Assembly (NCBI GenBank): GCA_039028615.1
Contig: JBCCHT010000036.1
Coordinates: 64,861 to 128,860, forward strand
Length of the DNA stretch: 64,000 bases
Direction: 5' to 3'
Source: Myxococcota bacterium
GTDB lineage: Bacteria; Myxococcota_A; Polyangia; Nannocystales; Nannocystaceae
Shown here: positions 2,155-59,181 of the stretch, piece after piece
Numbering within the stretch: position 1 is the first letter of the stretch
How the letters are laid out: each line of letters starts with the position of its first letter
Translations under genes and position numbers: made by a program
The notes under the pieces: generated by a model
The model's database searches: none
What the model was told of the DNA's origin: nothing
What the model saw: the letters and a program-made list of their open reading frames with translations, nothing else

Positions 2155-4575
<2,421 letters not shown>

Positions 4576-4596
4576 CTAGGGCGTTTTCCGGCGGCA

Positions 4597-4624
4597 ACCG
4601 TAACACCGGGCCGGATCGTGTCAA
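4597..4624 (-). promoter_or_regulatory. Putative sigma70 promoter of lon
   Basis: Minus strand TTGACA-16 nt-TACGGT with TG just upstream of the -10. Confidence 0.6.
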
Positions 4625-4688
4625 CCGGTTGGGCGGGCCGGGGCCGGAGACCCCCGCCGGGAGTGCAATGGGTGCTAGGCTCCACCCC

Positions 4689-6554
<1,866 letters not shown>

Positions 6555-6560
6555 ACCAAC

Positions 6561-6592
6561 AAAAAGAGCCCGGAGCGGCCGGCTCCGAGCTC
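6561..6592 (-). terminator. Intrinsic terminator of the small gene at 6618-6800
   Basis: Minus strand GAGCTCGGAGC-CGGCC-GCTCCGGGCTC-TTTTT: 11-bp stem with one U.G pair, then a U tract. Confidence 0.8.
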
Positions 6593-6617
6593 GATTCGTG
6601 CACCGCGAGGGCTCGCG

Positions 6618-6800
6618 TCAGTCCCAGCGGCTTCGCACCGCGCGACGCGGACGCTGGTCGAAGTGCTCATCGGCGTCGAGCTCCTCGAGAAGCTCCAGCT
6701 CTTCCTTGCCCAGCGATTCGTGGTGGGAGAACGAGCCGCGCAGGGCCTCGCGCTGAAAGTCTTGGAAGCTGTTGTACCCGCTGCGGAAGTAGCTGCTCAC
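6618..6800 (-). CDS. Small (60 aa) charged protein of unknown function
   Basis: GTG start with AGGAG about 10 nt upstream; MSSYFRSGYNSFQDFQREALRGSFSHHESLGKEELELLEELDADEHFDQRPRRAVRSRWD; strongly G/C-ending codons; own terminator. It is the 3' third of ORF 6618..7166. Confidence 0.75.
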   Translation of the reverse strand: MSSYFRSGYNSFQDFQREALRGSFSHHESLGKEELELLEELDADEHFDQRPRRAVRSRWD

Positions 6801-7094
6801 GTGTCGTCGTCTCCTGAAGCTCGTAGTCGATTGCGTGGGGGGTGAAGGGGCCGGGGAAAGGCCGGGCTGCCGCGGTCGCATCGCGGGGGCTTCGGTCCTC
6901 GTCGAGCCCGTCGCGGCCCGTCCGGTGAGCAGAAGGTATTCCTTGCACCTACATGTAGACAAGAATCTTACCGATCCACGAAATCCTGAACGGCTTGTCA
7001 GTTCGGGACCTGGGGACAGCCTCAGGCCCGCCCCCATCGATGACTGCCGCCCCGGGCTGCTCAGGCCCCGCGACAGTGGTAAGGATGGCCGGCC

Positions 7095-7922
7095 GTGCCC
7101 AGCACTTCTGCCGCCCAACGCCGCGCGCCACAGTCCCGCCCCACCGTCATCGCCATCAGCAACCAAAAGGGTGGCGAGGGGAAGACGACGACGGCCGTGA
7201 ACCTGGCCGCCAGCCTCGCTGCCGGTGAAAAACGAGTGCTGCTGGTCGATCTCGATCCGCAGTCGAACGCGAGCTCTTCGGTCGGCTTCCCGCGCGGCAC
7301 CGTGGACGCGGGCACCTACGAGCTGCTGCTCGGCGGGGTGCGAGCGACCGACATCGTCAAGGCCACCGAGCTCCCCACCCTATGGGTGATCCCAGCGTCG
7401 GAGCACCTGGCAGCGGCCGAGGTCGAGCTGGTCAACGTCGACGACCGCGAGACCGCGCTGCGCCGCGCTCTCGCCCCGCTGTGGGACGACGACCGCTTCG
7501 ACTACGTGATCTTCGATTGCCCGCCCTCGCTCGGGCTGCTCACCATCAATGCGTTGGTCGCCGCCGATCGGGTCATCATCCCGATGCAGGCCAAGTATTT
7601 CTCGCTCGAGGGCCTCGGGGCGCTCAACGGCACCATCGATGCGGTCAAGCAGGGGCTCAACCCCCAGCTGACGATCGAAGGCATCGTGTTCTGCATGTTC
7701 GACGCCCGCACCAACCTCGCCCAGCAGGTGGTCAGCGAGGTCCGCGAGCACTTCGGCAACATCGTCTACGAGACGGTGGTGCCCATCAACATTCGCCTGT
7801 CCGAGAGCCCCAGCTTCGGCAAGCCGGCCCTGCTCTACGACATCGAGAGCAAGGGCGCCCAGGCGTACTTGGCGTTGGCCCGCGAGGTCCTGTCGCGCTT
7901 CGAGACCCGAGGTGCCGCGTGA
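7095..7922 (+). CDS. parA: ParA/Soj family partitioning ATPase
   Basis: NQKGGEGKTTT deviant Walker A, DLDPQ, DCPPSLG, LSESPSFG. Confidence 0.95.
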   Translation: MPSTSAAQRRAPQSRPTVIAISNQKGGEGKTTTAVNLAASLAAGEKRVLLVDLDPQSNASSSVGFPRGTVDAGTYELLLGGVRATDIVKATELPTLWVIPASEHLAAAEVELVNVDDRETALRRALAPLWDDDRFDYVIFDCPPSLGLLTINALVAADRVIIPMQAKYFSLEGLGALNGTIDAVKQGLNPQLTIEGIVFCMFDARTNLAQQVVSEVREHFGNIVYETVVPINIRLSESPSFGKPALLYDIESKGAQAYLALAREVLSRFETRGAA

Positions 7923-8905
7923 GCAGCAGCAAGAGCAGCAAGGGCGGCAAGAGCAGCAAGCGTCGACCCGCTCTGGGGCGCGGCCTGGGTGCGCTGCTGC
8001 CCACGGCTCCCTCGGCCCCGTCCAGCACCGAGGCAGCCCCTGCGCCGAGCGTAGAGCCGGGAGAGACCGCCGCGCCGCCCGGCGAAGGCCTGCGCACGAT
8101 TCCCATCGAGCGGCTGTCACCGGGACCGGACCAGCCCCGCAAGTACTTCGATCCGGACGCGCTGGCCGAGCTGGCGAGCAGCATCGAGACCCAAGGCATC
8201 ATCCAGCCGATCGTGGTGTGCCCCGGTCCGCCCAGCCCGGGCCAGCCCCGCCACTACCTCATCGTCGCGGGTGAGCGACGGTGGCGAGCCGCCCAGCAAG
8301 CGGGCCTGCACGAGGTGCCGGTCGTCGTGCGCGACGTGGACGACGAAGAGCGGCTCGAGCTGGCCTTGGTCGAGAACATCCAGCGCGCCGACCTCAACCC
8401 GATCGAAGAGGCCCGCGCCTACTCGCAGCTGCTCACGCTGCGCAGCTGGACCCAAGACGAGCTCGCCGGTCGCGTGGGCAAGGACCGCAGCACCATCGCC
8501 AATGCGCTGCGTCTTCTGCGGCTGCCCGACAAGGTCCAGGAATTCGTCCGTGAAGGTCGACTCTCGATGGGTCACGCCCGCACCCTGCTGGGGCTCGAGC
8601 AAGAGGCCGACATCGTGTCGCTCGCCAAGGAGGTCCTGCGCTCGGGCATGAGCGTGCGGGCCACCGAGCAGGCCGTCCGCAAGCACAACGCCCCCGCCGC
8701 GGCCCCGGCCAACCCCGACGACGACGCGCAGCGCCGCAAGATCATCGTCAAGGAGCTCGAAGACCGGCTGCGTCGCCGGCTCGGCGTGCGGGTGAAGCTC
8801 AAGGCCCGCGGCAAGAACAAGGGCACGGGGACCGTCGAGATCCCCTACGCCAGCCTCGACGAGCTCGATCGCGTCCTGCAGGTGATCATGGGCAACGCGA
8901 ACTGA
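7919..8905 (+). CDS. parB: ParB/Spo0J chromosome partitioning protein
   Basis: GTGA overlap with the parA stop; ALGRGLGALL, QPRKYFD, GIIQPIVV, IVAGERRWRAA, ENIQRADLNPIEEA, HTH region. Confidence 0.95.
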   Translation: MSSSKSSKGGKSSKRRPALGRGLGALLPTAPSAPSSTEAAPAPSVEPGETAAPPGEGLRTIPIERLSPGPDQPRKYFDPDALAELASSIETQGIIQPIVVCPGPPSPGQPRHYLIVAGERRWRAAQQAGLHEVPVVVRDVDDEERLELALVENIQRADLNPIEEARAYSQLLTLRSWTQDELAGRVGKDRSTIANALRLLRLPDKVQEFVREGRLSMGHARTLLGLEQEADIVSLAKEVLRSGMSVRATEQAVRKHNAPAAAPANPDDDAQRRKIIVKELEDRLRRRLGVRVKLKARGKNKGTGTVEIPYASLDELDRVLQVIMGNAN

Positions 8906-47908: not shown

Positions 47909-50900
47909 ATGTCCGTCGCCTCCAAATGGTTCGACCTGGTCGTCGGCGTCGACCTCCACATGGAGCTCGTGCCGCCCTCCCCCGCGCCGGTGCCGTTCCC
48001 CCATCCCTTCGTCGGCATGGTGTGGGACCCGGTCGGGCTCATCATCGACGAGATGATCGGCGCGGGCATGGCTCTTTTGGGCGCCCCGCCCCCGCCGGGG
48101 CCCGTGCTCATCGGCGGTGTCCCGGCCACTGCCACTGGCGACGAGGCCATGATGCCCACCGGGCACATCCTGCTGCCGCCCGGGGTCTCGTGGGCGCCCA
48201 TCCCCAAGGTGCCCGCGCCCAGCGGGGGCAAAGGGGGCAAGCCCGGCCTCCCCGATCTGCCCGCCCCTCCGGCCGGCGATGCGATGCTCGCCTTCGGCAG
48301 TCAGACGGTCGAGTGGCGCGGCGGTCGAGCGGTCCGCATGGGCGACCCCGCCTTGTCCTGCTCCGACCCGATGCGACTGCCGACCTCGTTCGTCATCTCG
48401 GCCGGCCCCACCCCCGTGCTCGTCGGCGGTCCCGTCGGCCCCGACTGGGCCATGCTCGCCGCCGCGGTCGGGCTCGGGGCGCTGCGAACCAAGTGGGCCT
48501 CGAAGCTCGCGCACGCCGGGATTGAAAAATTCGTCCCCAAGCGCCTCAACCGGGCCCGCGACTTCCTCCACGACGCCGCCTGCTTCGTCACCGGTCACCC
48601 GGTCAACGTCGTCAACGGCAGCATGTTCACCACCTGGGCCGACCTCGAGCTGCCCGGCCCCATCCCGCTTTCGTTCACTCGTCGCTACCGCACCAGCTTC
48701 TGCGATCGCGATACCGGCCTCGGCTACGGCTGGACGCACAACCTCGACCAGCGCCTGTGGCTCGAGGAAGGGCGCGTCGTCTACCTCACCGAAGACGGCC
48801 GCGAGCTCGAGTTCGACACCTGGGAGTTCCCCGACCGAGCCATGCGCAAGGGCGACGAGGTCTTCGACCCCGTCAGTCGCTTCACCCTGCGCGCGCTCGG
48901 CCAGTTCCGCTGGTCGCTCGTCGGCCCCGACGGCCTGCGCCGCGAATTCGGCCCCGTGCCGGGCGAGTCCCCCCGCAACAAAGACCGCGGCCTCGCACGC
49001 CTGCTGTCCATCTCCAACCGCGTCGGTGACACCATCACCTTGGGCTACGACGAGCGGGCCCAGCTGCACCAAATCCGCGACAGCGGCGGCCGCCCCATCG
49101 CGCTCCAATACGACCGCCAGGGCCGAATCGCCACCCTCTGGGTCCCCGCCGCCGACGGCGAGGGCATGCGCCAGCACGCCGCCTTCGCCTACTCCCCCGA
49201 GGGCGACCTCGTGCAGGTCACCGATGCCGTCGGCAAGTCGGTGCGCTTCCGCTACGACCACCACACCCTCGTCCAAGAGACCGACCGCAACGGCCTGAGC
49301 TTCCACTTCGAGTACGAGGGTTGGGGGCCCTTTGCCCGCTGCACGCGAACCTGGGGCGACGGCCGACTCTACGACCACCTCATCACCTACGACGTCAAGG
49401 GGCGCCGCACCGTCGTCGAAGACTCGCTCGGCCACCCCACCCTCTACGAGTGGGGCCCCTACGGCCTCGTCACCTGTGTCACCGATCCCCGCGGCGGCGC
49501 CACCCGCTACGAGTACGACGATTGCCTGCGCCGCACCGTCGTCACCGACCCGCTCGGCCACACCACCCGCACCACCTACGACGCCCGCGGCAACCCCATC
49601 ATGGTCGTCGAGCCCGACGGCGCCATCACGCGGGTCCAGTACGACGAGCACGACGCTCCCCTCGCCCTCCAGACCCCCCGCGGCGGCACCTGGCGGTGGA
49701 CCTACGACCGCGAAGGGCGGCAGCTCACCGAGACCGACCCCCTCGGCCTGAGCACTCGCTTTCACCATCAAGGCGCCCGCCTGGTCGCCATCGACGACCC
49801 TGGCGGGGCGCGAACCACCCTTCACCACGATGGTGCGGGCAACCTCCAGGCGATCGAGCACGCCGACGGTTCCGCTCGGAAGTGGCGTCACGACGCCCTC
49901 GGCCGCCCCATTGTCGAGACCAACGCCAAGGGGGCCAACCGCCGCATCACCTACGACGCGCTCGGTCGAGCCGTCCGCATCGACGAAGCCGACGGCAACA
50001 CCCGCCAGCTCGCCTACGACGGCGAGGGCAACGTCGTGCGGGCCCGCGATCGCCTGCGCGACGTCGCCTTCACCTACCAGGGGCTCGGCGTTCCCACCTC
50101 GCGCACCATCGGCGGCACCACCGTCCGCTTCGAATACGACACCGAAGAGCGCCTCACCGCTTTCATCAACGAAAAGGGCCACGCGTACCGCTTCGAGCGC
50201 GACCCCGCCGGGGACTTGCTCGCCGAGCTGTGCTTCGACGAGACCAAGCGCGTCTACAAGCGCGACGCTGCCGGGCGCATCACCAAGCTGCTGCGGCCGG
50301 GCGTCGGCCGTAGCAGCGAGTACGGTTACGACCCCGCCGGACGGGTGCTGTCCGTCACCCACTCCGATGGCCTGACGGAACAGTTCGTCTACGACGAGCA
50401 GGGCGCGCTCGTCGAGGCCAGCAACACCGACACCACCCTGCGCTTCGAACGCGACCTGCGGGGCCGCGTGGTCGTCGAACATCAGGGCGAGCACTCCGTC
50501 ACTTCGCAGCTCGATCACCGAGGCCTACGGGTGGGTATGGAGTCCTCCATGGGCGGTGCCCTCGAGGTCGCCCGCAACGCCATGGGCGAAGTCGTGGGGC
50601 TCGTCGCCCGGCACGGCGAGCGACGCTGGGAGACCAAGATTACGCGCGACGTCCTCGGGCTGGAGGTCGACCGTCAGCTGCCCGGTGGTGCGCGTTCGTA
50701 TTGGTGGCGCGACGACCTCGGCCGACCCACCCAGCAGTGGGTCGGCAAGGAAAAGAAGCTCGCCCGCGGGCGTAGGTATACGTGGAGCTTCGACGATCGG
50801 CTCACCCAGATCTTCGAGGAGGGCCAAGGCGAGCAGCGCTTCGAGCACGACCCGCGGGGCAACCTCGTCCGCACCACGCTGCCCAACGGGCGCATCGAAT

Positions 50901-51994
50901 CGAGGGTGCCCGATGAGGTCGGCAATTTGTTCCGCACGGCCGAGCAGCAGGACCGGGAGTACGGCGTCGTCGGTGAGCTGAAGAAGGAGCAGACCGCCGA
51001 GGGTGTCGTTACGTATCGGTACGACTCCGAGGGCAACCTCATCGAGCGGGAGCAGCCCGATGGTGGCCTGTGGGCGTACGAGTGGGACGGTGCGGGTCGG
51101 CTGGTGTTGGTGCGCAAGCCCGACGAATCCGAGGTGACCTTCGCCTACGACCCGCTCGGGCGGCGGATCAGCAAGACTGCCGATGGGAAGACTACGCGGT
51201 GGGTGTGGGACGGCGATGTCGTCCTGCACGAGCTTGCTGGTGATGATGGCGAAGAGGTCGTCACCTGGGTCTTCGACCCCGAAGAGTTCTCTCCTGCGGC
51301 GCGGCTCGACGCCGAGGGGGCGCACAGCGTCGTCACCGATCACCTCGGCACCCCGCTGTGCCTCATCGACGAGGCCGGCGAGACGCGCTGGCAGGGCAGT
51401 ATCGATGCTTGGGGCCAGATGCGCATCGCGGGCGACGAAGCGCTGTGCCCGTGGCGGTATCCCGGGCAGTACGAGGATGCCGAGACCGGGCTCTGCTACA
51501 ACCGCTTTCGGTACTTCGATCCCAAGGGCGGCGCGTACATCAGCCGCGACCCGCTCGGCCTCGCGGGCGGCGTCAACCTGCACGGTTACGTCGACGACCC
51601 GCTCGTCGCCTACGACCCGCTCGGTCTCACGCGGAAGGACTACGAGCTAGGGGGTTTCGCCAAAGGAGTCGAGTTCTCCGAAGTCGCCGCGATCAACCGA
51701 AGATTCGGAGGAACGACCGCTCTAACGGGGAGCATCGATGCTGTTCTCGCGAGCGCTGCTCGTCAAAGGGGTTTCTTCAACAAAGCCGCAGTGGTCGTAC
51801 GGGGGATTGCGGGACGCCATCTCTACGACAACGGCAACAAACGAACAGCACACGCCGTACTCGACTTGTTGCGACAGCGAAACGGAGTGAGCAGCGGTGT
51901 CGATCCAACCGAAGTAAGGAAAGCAATTGCCCGGATCGCCCGCGGGGAACTGACAGAAATTCCAGACATCGCCCGAGCGCTTCGAGGCTTCTAA
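47909..51994 (+). CDS. Rhs polymorphic toxin: PAAR-like N-terminus, YD/RHS core, C-terminal Fic/Doc-like domain
   Basis: N-terminal KWFDLVVGVDLH...PHPFVG, GHPVNVVNG...GYGW, YD repeats, RYPGQYEDAETGLCYNRFRYFDP...DPLGL...DPLGL, C-terminal HLYDNGNKRTA. Alternative starts 47861 and 47807. Confidence 0.93.
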   Translation: MSVASKWFDLVVGVDLHMELVPPSPAPVPFPHPFVGMVWDPVGLIIDEMIGAGMALLGAPPPPGPVLIGGVPATATGDEAMMPTGHILLPPGVSWAPIPKVPAPSGGKGGKPGLPDLPAPPAGDAMLAFGSQTVEWRGGRAVRMGDPALSCSDPMRLPTSFVISAGPTPVLVGGPVGPDWAMLAAAVGLGALRTKWASKLAHAGIEKFVPKRLNRARDFLHDAACFVTGHPVNVVNGSMFTTWADLELPGPIPLSFTRRYRTSFCDRDTGLGYGWTHNLDQRLWLEEGRVVYLTEDGRELEFDTWEFPDRAMRKGDEVFDPVSRFTLRALGQFRWSLVGPDGLRREFGPVPGESPRNKDRGLARLLSISNRVGDTITLGYDERAQLHQIRDSGGRPIALQYDRQGRIATLWVPAADGEGMRQHAAFAYSPEGDLVQVTDAVGKSVRFRYDHHTLVQETDRNGLSFHFEYEGWGPFARCTRTWGDGRLYDHLITYDVKGRRTVVEDSLGHPTLYEWGPYGLVTCVTDPRGGATRYEYDDCLRRTVVTDPLGHTTRTTYDARGNPIMVVEPDGAITRVQYDEHDAPLALQTPRGGTWRWTYDREGRQLTETDPLGLSTRFHHQGARLVAIDDPGGARTTLHHDGAGNLQAIEHADGSARKWRHDALGRPIVETNAKGANRRITYDALGRAVRIDEADGNTRQLAYDGEGNVVRARDRLRDVAFTYQGLGVPTSRTIGGTTVRFEYDTEERLTAFINEKGHAYRFERDPAGDLLAELCFDETKRVYKRDAAGRITKLLRPGVGRSSEYGYDPAGRVLSVTHSDGLTEQFVYDEQGALVEASNTDTTLRFERDLRGRVVVEHQGEHSVTSQLDHRGLRVGMESSMGGALEVARNAMGEVVGLVARHGERRWETKITRDVLGLEVDRQLPGGARSYWWRDDLGRPTQQWVGKEKKLARGRRYTWSFDDRLTQIFEEGQGEQRFEHDPRGNLVRTTLPNGRIESRVPDEVGNLFRTAEQQDREYGVVGELKKEQTAEGVVTYRYDSEGNLIEREQPDGGLWAYEWDGAGRLVLVRKPDESEVTFAYDPLGRRISKTADGKTTRWVWDGDVVLHELAGDDGEEVVTWVFDPEEFSPAARLDAEGAHSVVTDHLGTPLCLIDEAGETRWQGSIDAWGQMRIAGDEALCPWRYPGQYEDAETGLCYNRFRYFDPKGGAYISRDPLGLAGGVNLHGYVDDPLVAYDPLGLTRKDYELGGFAKGVEFSEVAAINRRFGGTTALTGSIDAVLASAARQRGFFNKAAVVVRGIAGRHLYDNGNKRTAHAVLDLLRQRNGVSSGVDPTEVRKAIARIARGELTEIPDIARALRGF

Positions 51995-52002
51995 GGACGA
52001 AC

Positions 52003-52326
52003 ATGCCCGATCGGAAAAACACGAACAGGAGAGAAATCCCCCGCATCGCCTCTCTCCTCGGCCTTGCGACGATTGACAGCGACTGGTCGGGAGTCGATCC
52101 AGTGCTCCCGTTGCTGGAGCACATGCGCCAGGAAGGTGCAGTCGTCGTATTCAAGCTGGACGGCGGGCGTGGTCCCGGCGACAACGGCCCCTATACGGGC
52201 ATCGCGTCCGGGCCGCCCCTCGGAGACGATTTCGTCCGAATCGACGCAGATACGCTCGAAGACGCCCTAGCGAGCATCATTGTCGGCTACGCGACCCGTG
52301 TCTGGGGACACCCTCCTTCCGAATGA
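52003..52326 (+). CDS. Putative cognate immunity protein (107 aa)
   Basis: ATG 8 nt after the Rhs stop, with TAAGGA overlapping that stop; it is the tail of ORF 51358..52326. Confidence 0.7.
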   Translation: MPDRKNTNRREIPRIASLLGLATIDSDWSGVDPVLPLLEHMRQEGAVVVFKLDGGRGPGDNGPYTGIASGPPLGDDFVRIDADTLEDALASIIVGYATRVWGHPPSE

Positions 52327-52360: not shown

Positions 52361-52666
52361 ATGCAAACGCCCAGGACCACCGATGCAGGACCCCGAACGA
52401 TGACTCCCCTCGAGCAATATTTCCGTGGGAACGACGCCTGGCGGTCGTTCGTCGCTGCGGTCGACGGCGGCGCCCCTGCGTCCCCAACACTCCAACGAGC
52501 CCTCGGCGACGACGTCGAGTTGGCTCGCGTCGTCAGCTTCATCATCGGGCCAACCGCCGAGGAGTGGATCACCAAGCAAGTGCCCGCCCTGGACGGCCTG
52601 ACGCCGATTGAATGTGTAGCAACGGGCAAGACCGAGCGGCTCAAGACCATGCTGATGCGGATGTAG
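52361..52666 (+). CDS. Small protein resembling the Xre/MbcA/ParS antitoxin toxin-binding domain
   Basis: C-terminal AEEWITKQVPALDGLTPIECVATGKTERLKTMLMRM fits the W...PAL.G.TP pattern of that domain (by eye); start could be ATG 52400. Confidence 0.55.
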   Translation: MQTPRTTDAGPRTMTPLEQYFRGNDAWRSFVAAVDGGAPASPTLQRALGDDVELARVVSFIIGPTAEEWITKQVPALDGLTPIECVATGKTERLKTMLMRM

Positions 52667-52743: not shown

Positions 52744-53115
52744 ATGAGCGAGAAACGCCGAAAGATCCCCACGGCTGCGGACGTCGAATGAGCCTCCGAA
52801 GCGTTGAAGAAGCGGCGCTGTGGTCTCAGCGATATCAGGGACAGGGTCCTCGAGCGCTTTCGGGACGAACCTGCCCTCCACGATTCATTCGTGCTGGATG
52901 GGCCATCGGAGATGGTCTACGCCACGTTCTTCCATCGCCAGGCCGCGGATATCGACGCGGCCCTCGCATCCGGCCTGTCGGCGAGGCTTTCGCACGCCGT
53001 GCGGGAGGAACTCAGGCGTGTCGGGCGAGACGTGAAGGCTGTCGAGTTCGAGTTCGACAGCCACGAGAACGTCGAGAAGAACTTCGAGGGCGACTACTTC
53101 CTGCGGTTCCGTTGA
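52744..53115 (+). pseudogene. Small immunity-like gene interrupted by an in-frame TGA (52789-52791); alternatively an intact CDS from TTG 52804
   Basis: ATG 52744 reads MSEKRRKIPTAADVE*ASEALKKRRCGLSDIR..., in frame with ORF 52804..53115. Confidence 0.5.
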
Positions 53116-53276: not shown

Positions 53277-53531
53277 ATGGACTCACCGAACGACGCGCTG
53301 CGAACCACCTTGGAATCGCTACTCCGTCGCGGAGCGTCGCACGACGAGCTGCGGGCAGCCTTGGTTGCTTTCAAGGAGCGCGGGGGCCTACAGCAAGACG
53401 CGGTCGAGATCCTCTACGCCCTCCGTGCGTGGGCGCCCGATGAAGCAACCGAAGACCTCGTGCTCGACACGCTCGACTTCGCGACCGGTTGGTGCCGAGC
53501 GGAGATCCGTGTTTGGGGAACCGAGGGTTGA
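53277..53531 (+). CDS. Small helical hypothetical protein (84 aa), immunity-like by context
   Basis: Amphipathic acidic ORF ending DTLDFATGWCRAEIRVW; lies in the post-Rhs array. Confidence 0.6.
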   Translation: MDSPNDALRTTLESLLRRGASHDELRAALVAFKERGGLQQDAVEILYALRAWAPDEATEDLVLDTLDFATGWCRAEIRVWGTEG

Positions 53532-55050: not shown

Positions 55051-55986
55051 TCAGCGCTCGTCTTCGGTGCTGGGCCGCGCGCGCGGGTGCGACTGCTCGT
55101 AGACGTCGATGATCTTGCCCAGGCTCAGGTGAGTGTAGCGCTGGGTGGTGGACAAGCTGGCGTGGCCGAGCATGGACTGGATGGTCCGCAGGTCACAGCC
55201 GCTCTCGAGCAGGTGGGTGGCAAAGCTGTGGCGCAGGCCGTGCGGGCTCACGCGAGCTCGCGCTTGCTCGGTGCTGCGGCGCTCGACGAGGTACCGCACC
55301 TGCCGGTCGCCGAGGCGCCCGCCTCGATTACCCAGGAACACGGCCTCGGCGGGCGAGGTCTCGCGCACGAGCTGCTGGCGATGCTCGAGGTACTCGCGCA
55401 GCGCCTTGGTGCCCGCGCGCCCCAGGGGCACGATGCGGTCCTTGCCGCCCTTGCCTCGAACGACGCGAATGAGCAGGGTGTCGCGGTCCCAGCGCAGGTT
55501 TTGGTGGTCGAGCCGCACGCACTCGCTGACGCGGAGGCCCGCGCCGTACAGTACCTCGAGCACGGCCTTGTCGCGGAGGCGACGGGCAAGGGCGGGAGGG
55601 CGCTCGTGCTCGGCAGGCGCCTCGATCATCGAGGCGACGTCGTCGACGGGCAGCGCGACGGGGAGCCTCTGCCCGCGCTTGGGGTTTTGAATGAGGGCGG
55701 CCTCGTTGTCCTGGACGAGCCCTTGCTGGCGCAGGTACTCGCCAAAGCGGCGCAGCGCGGAGAGCTTGCGCGACATGGTGCTCGGCGCCCGCTTGGCGTG
55801 CATCTTGGCCAGGTGCGCCCGGACCTGCCGCACCTTCAGGTCGGCGGGAGTCGGCTCGCGACCGGTGCGCTCCTCCACCGTGTCGAGGAACTGCTCGATG
55901 TCACGCCGATAGGCCCGCACCGTGTTGGGTGAAGCCCGCACCTCCTCTTCGAGGTGCTGAACGAAGCGTGCGAGCGCGTCCCGCAT
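55051..55986 (-). CDS. xerC: Tyrosine recombinase XerC
   Basis: SPNTVRAYRRD, LYGAGLRVSE, GKGGKDRIVP, PHGLRHSFATHLL, LGHASLSTTQRYT. Confidence 0.88.
   Translation of the reverse strand: MRDALARFVQHLEEEVRASPNTVRAYRRDIEQFLDTVEERTGREPTPADLKVRQVRAHLAKMHAKRAPSTMSRKLSALRRFGEYLRQQGLVQDNEAALIQNPKRGQRLPVALPVDDVASMIEAPAEHERPPALARRLRDKAVLEVLYGAGLRVSECVRLDHQNLRWDRDTLLIRVVRGKGGKDRIVPLGRAGTKALREYLEHRQQLVRETSPAEAVFLGNRGGRLGDRQVRYLVERRSTEQARARVSPHGLRHSFATHLLESGCDLRTIQSMLGHASLSTTQRYTHLSLGKIIDVYEQSHPRARPSTEDER

Positions 55987-56088: not shown

Positions 56089-59181
<3,093 letters not shown>

Follow-up and report, generated by a model that had tools for sequence, protein, structure and literature searches.

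A Doc-type toxin tip on a myxobacterial Rhs protein, its likely immunity partner, and EF-Tu as a candidate target

Closest described systems

Here we describe an Rhs polymorphic toxin gene that ends in a Doc-type toxin tip and is followed by a likely immunity gene, in a 64,000-nucleotide stretch of a Myxococcota bacterium genome (assembly GCA_039028615.1, contig JBCCHT010000036.1; the whole stretch is called the window below). Among the nearest described systems is the Phd-Doc toxin-antitoxin module of phage P1 (TIGR01550; structures 3k33 and 3dd7), which shares with the tip its fold, its size and the motif His-x-[FY]-x-[DN]-[GA]-Asn-Lys-Arg-Thr. In Doc, Lys73 in place of a glycine inverts the bound ATP, making the enzyme a kinase of Thr382 in EF-Tu (review, PMC7180214). 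P1 Doc is a stand-alone toxin with Phd encoded upstream, whereas here the tip is fused to an Rhs protein, the partner is a downstream gene with a predicted alpha/beta product, and the tips form a separate group in a tree. The locus thus shows neither of the features that mark a type II module of the Phd-Doc kind, a small stand-alone toxin and an upstream Phd.

Doc-like tips of polymorphic toxins had already been predicted, as an earlier note on this DNA stated. The Tox-Doc domain of Zhang et al. 2012 (PMC3482391) is likewise a Doc/Fic-fold tip, on carriers that include those of the type V secretion system (T5SS; contact-dependent inhibition, CDI) and the type VII secretion system (T7SS), in Actinobacteria and gamma-proteobacteria. 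That listing gives HxFx[DE]GNxR as the motif and names FilH repeats, with no RHS and no type VI secretion system (T6SS), whereas the family described here has an NKRT end and includes Rhs and eCIS_core carriers. Its immunity proteins are Imm23, SUKH or Imm13; here no Pfam match is common to 57 aligned partner members, although the 2012 names were compared as names only. Zhang et al. also assumed transfer of adenosine or uridine monophosphate (AMP or UMP), whereas the tip here carries a kinase-type motif. The 2012 set may include members of this clade.

Two T6SS effectors offer further points of comparison. TreTu of Salmonella, with its immunity protein TriTu, is also an Rhs tip that blocks translation through EF-Tu and has a downstream immunity gene, but it ADP-ribosylates Asp21 using NAD and belongs to another fold with another immunity family (PMC9825190). 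Rhs tips known to modify or bind EF-Tu include TreTu and Rhs2. CccR of Yersinia pseudotuberculosis is an antibacterial effector with the same Fido fold, but has a canonical Fic motif, AMPylates FtsZ, and comes without carrier or immunity gene, unlike the Rhs tip here (PMC9755527). A kinase effector is not mentioned in the available text of a 2023 T6SS review (PMC10433429), and in the literature searched, whose coverage leaves most subscription papers outside, we found neither an experimental study of a Doc-type polymorphic toxin nor an injected antibacterial toxin that phosphorylates; the characterised protein modifiers add ADP-ribose or AMP. The earlier note took this locus for the best candidate for an uncharacterised system in the window; the family is widespread and not confined to this locus. 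The class was predicted in 2012, and what is added here is predicted kinase-type chemistry, a wider range of carriers and an unnamed immunity family.

The tip and its partner

Both the fold and the motif of the tip are Doc-type and not Fic-type, as had been proposed from the sequence. The structural model is all-helical with a predicted local distance difference test (pLDDT) score of 94.8, and its best match among 48,161 chains is P1 Doc 3dd7 (Z 13.7, root-mean-square deviation (rmsd) 2.5 over 109 residues); the runners-up are AvrB (Z 7.1) and Fic enzymes (Z at most 6.2). The top five Foldseek rows are P1 Doc chains, and the tip-family profile matches Doc 3k33 (E 1e-8). For the motif we examined 153 proteins (150 listed hits, two more, and the query), and a motif could be read in 144 of them. 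His, Asn and Arg are present in 144/144 and Lys in 140/144, while the second Arg of the Fic motif occurs in 0/144; at position 6, Gly is found in 112/144, as in Fic. The AMP transferase motif HxFx(D/E)GNGRxxR (PMC9755527) is not found in the tip family. The aromatic position holds Phe in 134 members and Tyr in nine, the query included, so Tyr, which the earlier note had singled out as unusual, is a minor variant, and we reject it as a special feature. An acidic residue stands at the column of Doc Asp70 or the position before it in 122/144.

The 107-residue open reading frame (ORF) downstream is likely the cognate immunity gene, and we regard tip and partner as very probably a toxin-immunity pair. 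A first partner profile, built from eight independently found relatives, already gave 62 matching frames (E<0.001) across the 80 genome loci. Following two further profile rounds on those loci, the partner stood directly downstream of the tip on the same strand in 70/80 and elsewhere in those loci in none. Of the 80 metagenome loci covered, out of 222, it occurs in 62, including 49/49 fused tips. Spacing in the 70 pairs is most commonly -1, +1 or -4 nucleotides. Among 79 viral-contig loci only the two true tips have the partner; it is absent beside the other 77, which are distant Doc loci, and beside 22 weak-scoring Streptomycetaceae Doc loci. These figures are counts and not a test, because kin are not independent. 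Nine of the 10/80 genome loci without a partner are small Acidobacteriota genes, and the tenth is a Streptomyces cinnamoneus locus (L077) considered below.

The partner does not resemble Phd, as the earlier note had remarked: library scans give no Phd match, and the Phd segment is helical (PMC2686095), whereas the partner model (pLDDT 87.4) is alpha/beta, with two helices, three strands and a helix, loosely like a double-stranded RNA (dsRNA)-binding domain. Foldseek returns no row at E<=0.001, its best rows being dsRNA-binding domains; the best VIA match is 1r7l (Z 6.9, rmsd 3.1, 81 aligned residues), with dsRNA-binding domains at 5-6, values in the range of a common arrangement, and the Atlas neighbours are unnamed clusters. 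Prediction of the tip-partner complex scored 0.17, below the mark of 0.32, and weighs neither way. In one locus (L047:6356-7006) the immunity-family domain occurs as a tandem duplicate directly after the tip, and in another (L244:1474-2052) a distant, apparently doubled copy lies away from any toxin.

The Rhs gene itself is intact, running from its ATG to its stop without internal stops (Table 1). The ATG is the likely start, rather than an upstream TTG, because relatives start at the same MSxASKW. A library scan finds in the protein the YD/RHS repeat shell and Rhs-associated core that are a hallmark of Rhs toxins. The consensus of the Rhs autocleavage site is DPxG. Both aspartyl autoproteolysis and VgrG loading are established for Rhs proteins (PMC8636562). 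The positions first given for DPLGL and HLYDNGNKRTA proved correct, as did the shift in codon usage between shell and tip: G+C at third codon positions (GC3) is 0.89 before DPLGL (1104/1240 codons) and 0.60 in the tip (72/121; Fisher p 6e-15), in a host genome of 12.3 Mb and about 68% G+C. The tip is variable among relatives; of 13 relatives' loci read, 11 have a complete Rhs gene, and in 10/11 of these the tip is a different one. A single instance of the pattern H.[FY].[DNE][GA]N[KG]R is present in the six frames of the window, and likewise a single one in all open frames of the genome with at least 50 residues. The partner ORF begins 8 nucleotides past the Rhs stop. Against three close relatives, mismatches in tip and partner fall mostly at third codon positions (e.g. 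29/20/74 and 33/20/75 by position), and the two therefore behave as real genes. A promoter scan gave 0 sites.

Table 1. Features of the Rhs locus, in window positions
Feature	Position	Strand	Basis
Rhs polymorphic toxin gene, 1361 aa	47909..51994	+	RHS_repeat, DUF6531, RHS, YD_repeat_2x and Rhs_assc_core, all above cut-off
PAAR-like N-terminal domain, common to relatives' Rhs proteins adjoining vgrG	47909..48448	+	weak PAAR_motif match
DUF6531 domain, residues 229-302	48593..48814	+	domain match
YD/RHS repeat shell and Rhs core, end RDPLG...YDPLGL	48815..51628	+	domain matches
DPLGL, predicted autocleavage boundary	51614..51628	+	motif; Rhs aspartyl autoproteolysis (PMC8636562)
Doc-type toxin tip, 121 aa (P0002)	51629..51994	+	profile, sequence and structure comparison
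Active-site motif HLYDNGNKRTA (H64, Y66, N70, K71, R72)	51818..51850	+	aligned to Doc HIFNDANKRTA
Likely cognate immunity gene, 107 aa (P0003), unnamed alpha/beta family	52003..52326	+	co-occurrence with tip; model
Best-conserved immunity stretch K51-x-D53-G54-x-R56	52153..52170	+	possible mimic of the EF-Tu E-G-G-R-T loop; post hoc, speculative

Further along the window lies an 87-residue ORF (52403-52666) with a weak match to the Xre/MbcA/ParS C-terminal antitoxin domain (20.8 bits, cut-off 24.5) and no toxin partner in sight. Two small ORFs (52804-53115 and 53277-53531), whose GC3 is somewhat reduced and for which neither the genome nor the fetched loci contain a paralogue, are possible orphan immunity genes. 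Near the Rhs locus we also see what we take, by eye, to be genes for a XerC-like recombinase (55051-55986) and an error-prone DnaE2-like polymerase (56089-59181).

Delivery and spread

Delivery by the T6SS is, judged from gene context, probable. The earlier note had suggested either a T6SS or an extracellular contractile injection system (eCIS) from a PAAR-like N-terminus, and had seen no vgrG in the window. The absence extends to the whole contig, where we find no vgrG match. Contractile delivery as such is backed by vgrG linkage in relatives, but the PAAR match itself is weak: the N-terminus scores 18.7 bits against Pfam PAAR_motif (cut-off 27; E 0.002), 9/11 aligned members match at E<=1, Protein Data Bank rows are weak, Atlas values are 0.80-0.81, and a genome-wide PAAR search was blank. 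In four relatives (L239, L241, L242, L243) the same Rhs type follows a vgrG and an accessory gene, and in two more (L240, L231) a vgrG lies just downstream of it; these vgrG genes are of the TIGR03361 family. One of the two, L231, has an orthologous Rhs gene with the same Doc tip. For its accessory protein the sole match in the present genome is on contig C32 (48% over 427 residues), and C32 is also the best match in this genome for its VgrG C-terminus.

That contig carries, on the minus strand at 3394-8524, a vgrG and an 804-residue accessory gene with no Rhs or effector gene behind them. C32 is the likely loading platform in trans, because the L231 proteins match it and its pair lacks an Rhs gene. 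Relatives again have members of the accessory family next to this type of Rhs gene, and as the homologue in L241 gives only a faint TPR match, the family may represent an adaptor without a name. The relatives' vgrG linkage, together with the matching pair elsewhere in the genome, favors the T6SS over an eCIS. Altogether we find four VgrG, VipB and three phage-sheath-type loci in this genome. A second PAAR-like Rhs protein (1415 residues), with an unrelated tip, is encoded on contig C14 (32283-40228, minus strand) behind a vgrG and a 471-residue gene.

Beyond this locus, the tip family is widespread on Rhs, CDI, T7SS-type and eCIS-type carriers. A full HMMER search with the tip gave 209 cluster representatives, 150 of them listed, and a word-index search gave two relatives; a genome scan gave 284 relatives, of which the best 80 were kept as the genome loci. 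Those best 80/284 come from Myxococcota, Planctomycetota, Actinomycetota, Pseudomonadota, Bacillota and others. Among the 51 longer hits scanned of the 150, RHS repeats (14) and PT-HINT (11) are the commonest carrier domains, with PT-VENN, eCIS_core and SpvB (two each) and PT-TG and ALF (one each) being rarer. Within the order, the Rhs N-terminus occurs in 29/73 genomes and the tip in 3/73. A quick tree, built on few columns, groups the tips apart from toxin-antitoxin Docs (support 96) and places mostly Myxococcota nearest to the tip; one row, L155, groups with ordinary Docs at the end of a very long branch and was probably mispicked.

Some members have no carrier. Five Streptomyces loci (L016, L018, L020, L026, L048) encode the tip in a short open frame of 136-137 residues together with the partner gene, and are likely orphan tip-immunity cassettes. 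Nine Acidobacteriota loci (L038, L041, L043, L059, L062, L063, L067, L068, L074) have a small stand-alone gene with the full motif; these partnerless members form one clade in the quick tree, and the partner was not found in the four of their genomes that were searched. Their neighbors appear to be unrelated housekeeping genes, by eye presumably uvrB-, urease-, efp- and siroheme-synthase-like.

EF-Tu as candidate target

Two indirect genomic hints point to EF-Tu as the target of the tip. One comes from the Streptomyces cinnamoneus locus L077, an ALF-HINT carrier whose tip is nested in the quick tree among actinobacterial tips that have the partner. Directly after this tip, at L077:6427-7722, lies a degenerate EF-Tu gene that is additional to two other tuf-like genes. 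In its product switch I and the DCPGH motif are gone, while the C-terminal RFSVREGGRAVGSG is kept. Ala416 of this protein aligns to residue 382 of the 393-residue chain 1efc_A, a column with Thr in 118/118 ordinary EF-Tu hits, and a protein of the same species (P0219), 43% identical to it, also has Ala there. We consider this gene a candidate decoy, part of what may be a cluster directed against EF-Tu toxins. No second decoy of this kind turned up in 400 further Streptomycetaceae genomes (with P0219 as the query), in the remaining 79 genome loci or in the 80 metagenome loci, and in another 400 Actinomycetota genomes no hit scored higher than ordinary tuf genes (a tally that includes five flagged as unpublished, G562, G786, G804, G594 and G523, which enter nothing else here).

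The other hint lies in the partner. Its four most conserved columns are R56 (57/57), D53 and K51 (56/57 each) and G54 (54/57), and Thr follows Arg56 in 17/57 members (17-56% mutual identity), compared with 3.8% Thr overall. The resulting stretch, D-G-x-R(-T), resembles the E-G-G-R-T loop of EF-Tu, a likeness noticed post hoc. When the profile of the immunity family was compared with that of EF-Tu, no relationship emerged (probability 0.7%), so any mimicry would be local and not a matter of homology.

These observations suggest the following mechanism. The PAAR-like N-terminus would attach the Rhs protein to a T6SS spike, a step in which, as gene context suggests, the C32 vgrG-accessory pair probably takes part. 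Self-cleavage at DPLGL, of the kind established for Rhs proteins, would then free the 121-residue tip in a neighboring cell. Judged by its fold and motif, the tip is probably a kinase, and with the two genomic hints added, its likely substrate is EF-Tu at Thr382; its phosphorylation would stop translation. The partner would bind and block the tip, perhaps with a loop that mimics the target site, though the latter is speculative. Overall, we favor, with some reserve, an antibacterial effector-immunity pair in which a T6SS-delivered Doc-type kinase acts on EF-Tu and is blocked by the partner. A broader version, in which an injected kinase spread across several secretion systems is aimed at EF-Tu Thr382 and countered both by partner-loop mimicry and by one Streptomyces EF-Tu decoy, appears doubtful.

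Several observations weigh against the preferred mechanism. The L077 EF-Tu-like protein shares fewer than half its residues with EF-Tu, its gene is known after a tip in one context only, and a distant partner homologue is present elsewhere in the same genome. Moreover, a TriTu-like ORF (7700-8059, under the cut-off) follows the EF-Tu-like gene, as does a DUF5958 ORF, and because of the former the EF-Tu-like gene may guard against another EF-Tu toxin. As for the loop, the query partner has Gly and not Thr after Arg56, and 7.9% of the 100-residue segments of this genome contain [DE]GxR. The tip scores just below the cut-offs of TIGR01550 (36.6 bits, cut-off 38.65; E 4e-9) and Pfam Fic (PF02661; 22.5 bits, cut-off 24), is about 24% identical to P1 Doc, and gives no Foldseek row at E<=0.001; its target therefore need not be that of Doc. 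At the column of Doc Asp70, a residue that may matter in P1 Doc (a literature search gave no confirmation), the query has Asn68, and Asn stands there in 76/144 members. Finally, the stand-alone, partnerless Acidobacteriota members are a poor fit with a strong EF-Tu poison.

Some of these points would suit a kinase that is delivered and neutralised in the same way but directed at a different translational GTPase or at some unrelated essential protein. We think this unlikely: the low identity to P1 Doc, the separation of the tips from toxin-antitoxin Docs, their wholly different inhibitor and the full motif of the partnerless Acidobacteriota members are all consistent with it, but the Ala-for-Thr382 gene of L077 and the D-G-x-R-T loop of the immunity family both point, weakly, at EF-Tu. 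That the tip is instead a nucleotidyl transferase, placing AMP or UMP on a protein, is very unlikely. Polymorphic DOC domains have been described as AMP/UMP transferases (PMC3482391), the T6SS effector CccR AMPylates FtsZ (PMC9755527), and the Gly at motif position 6 is Fic-like; against this stand the near-universal Lys at the Gly position, the missing second Arg, and a model that fits Doc far better than any Fic enzyme.

The pair could also be real and yet, in this organism, be delivered by an eCIS or not at all, the gene being orphaned but intact. A contig without vgrG, three phage-sheath-type loci in the genome, eCIS_core carriers within the tip family and a PAAR match below its cut-off would agree with this reading, but the TIGR03361 VgrG genes adjoining the relatives' copies, and the presence in this genome of four VgrG, of VipB and of a matching vgrG-accessory pair that lacks an effector, make it quite improbable. 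We retain, as the favored reading, T6SS delivery of a Doc-type kinase directed at EF-Tu.

If this is right, protein phosphorylation of EF-Tu would join the arsenal of injected toxins, and the 2012 assumption of AMP transfer by Doc tips would be corrected. It would also mean that a toxin-antitoxin enzyme has come to arm Rhs, CDI, T7SS-type and eCIS-type weapons, where a new inhibitor has taken over from Phd. Tip and partner form a small, easily tested pair, and if the loop mimicry proves true, the immunity protein would reveal how Doc recognises EF-Tu.

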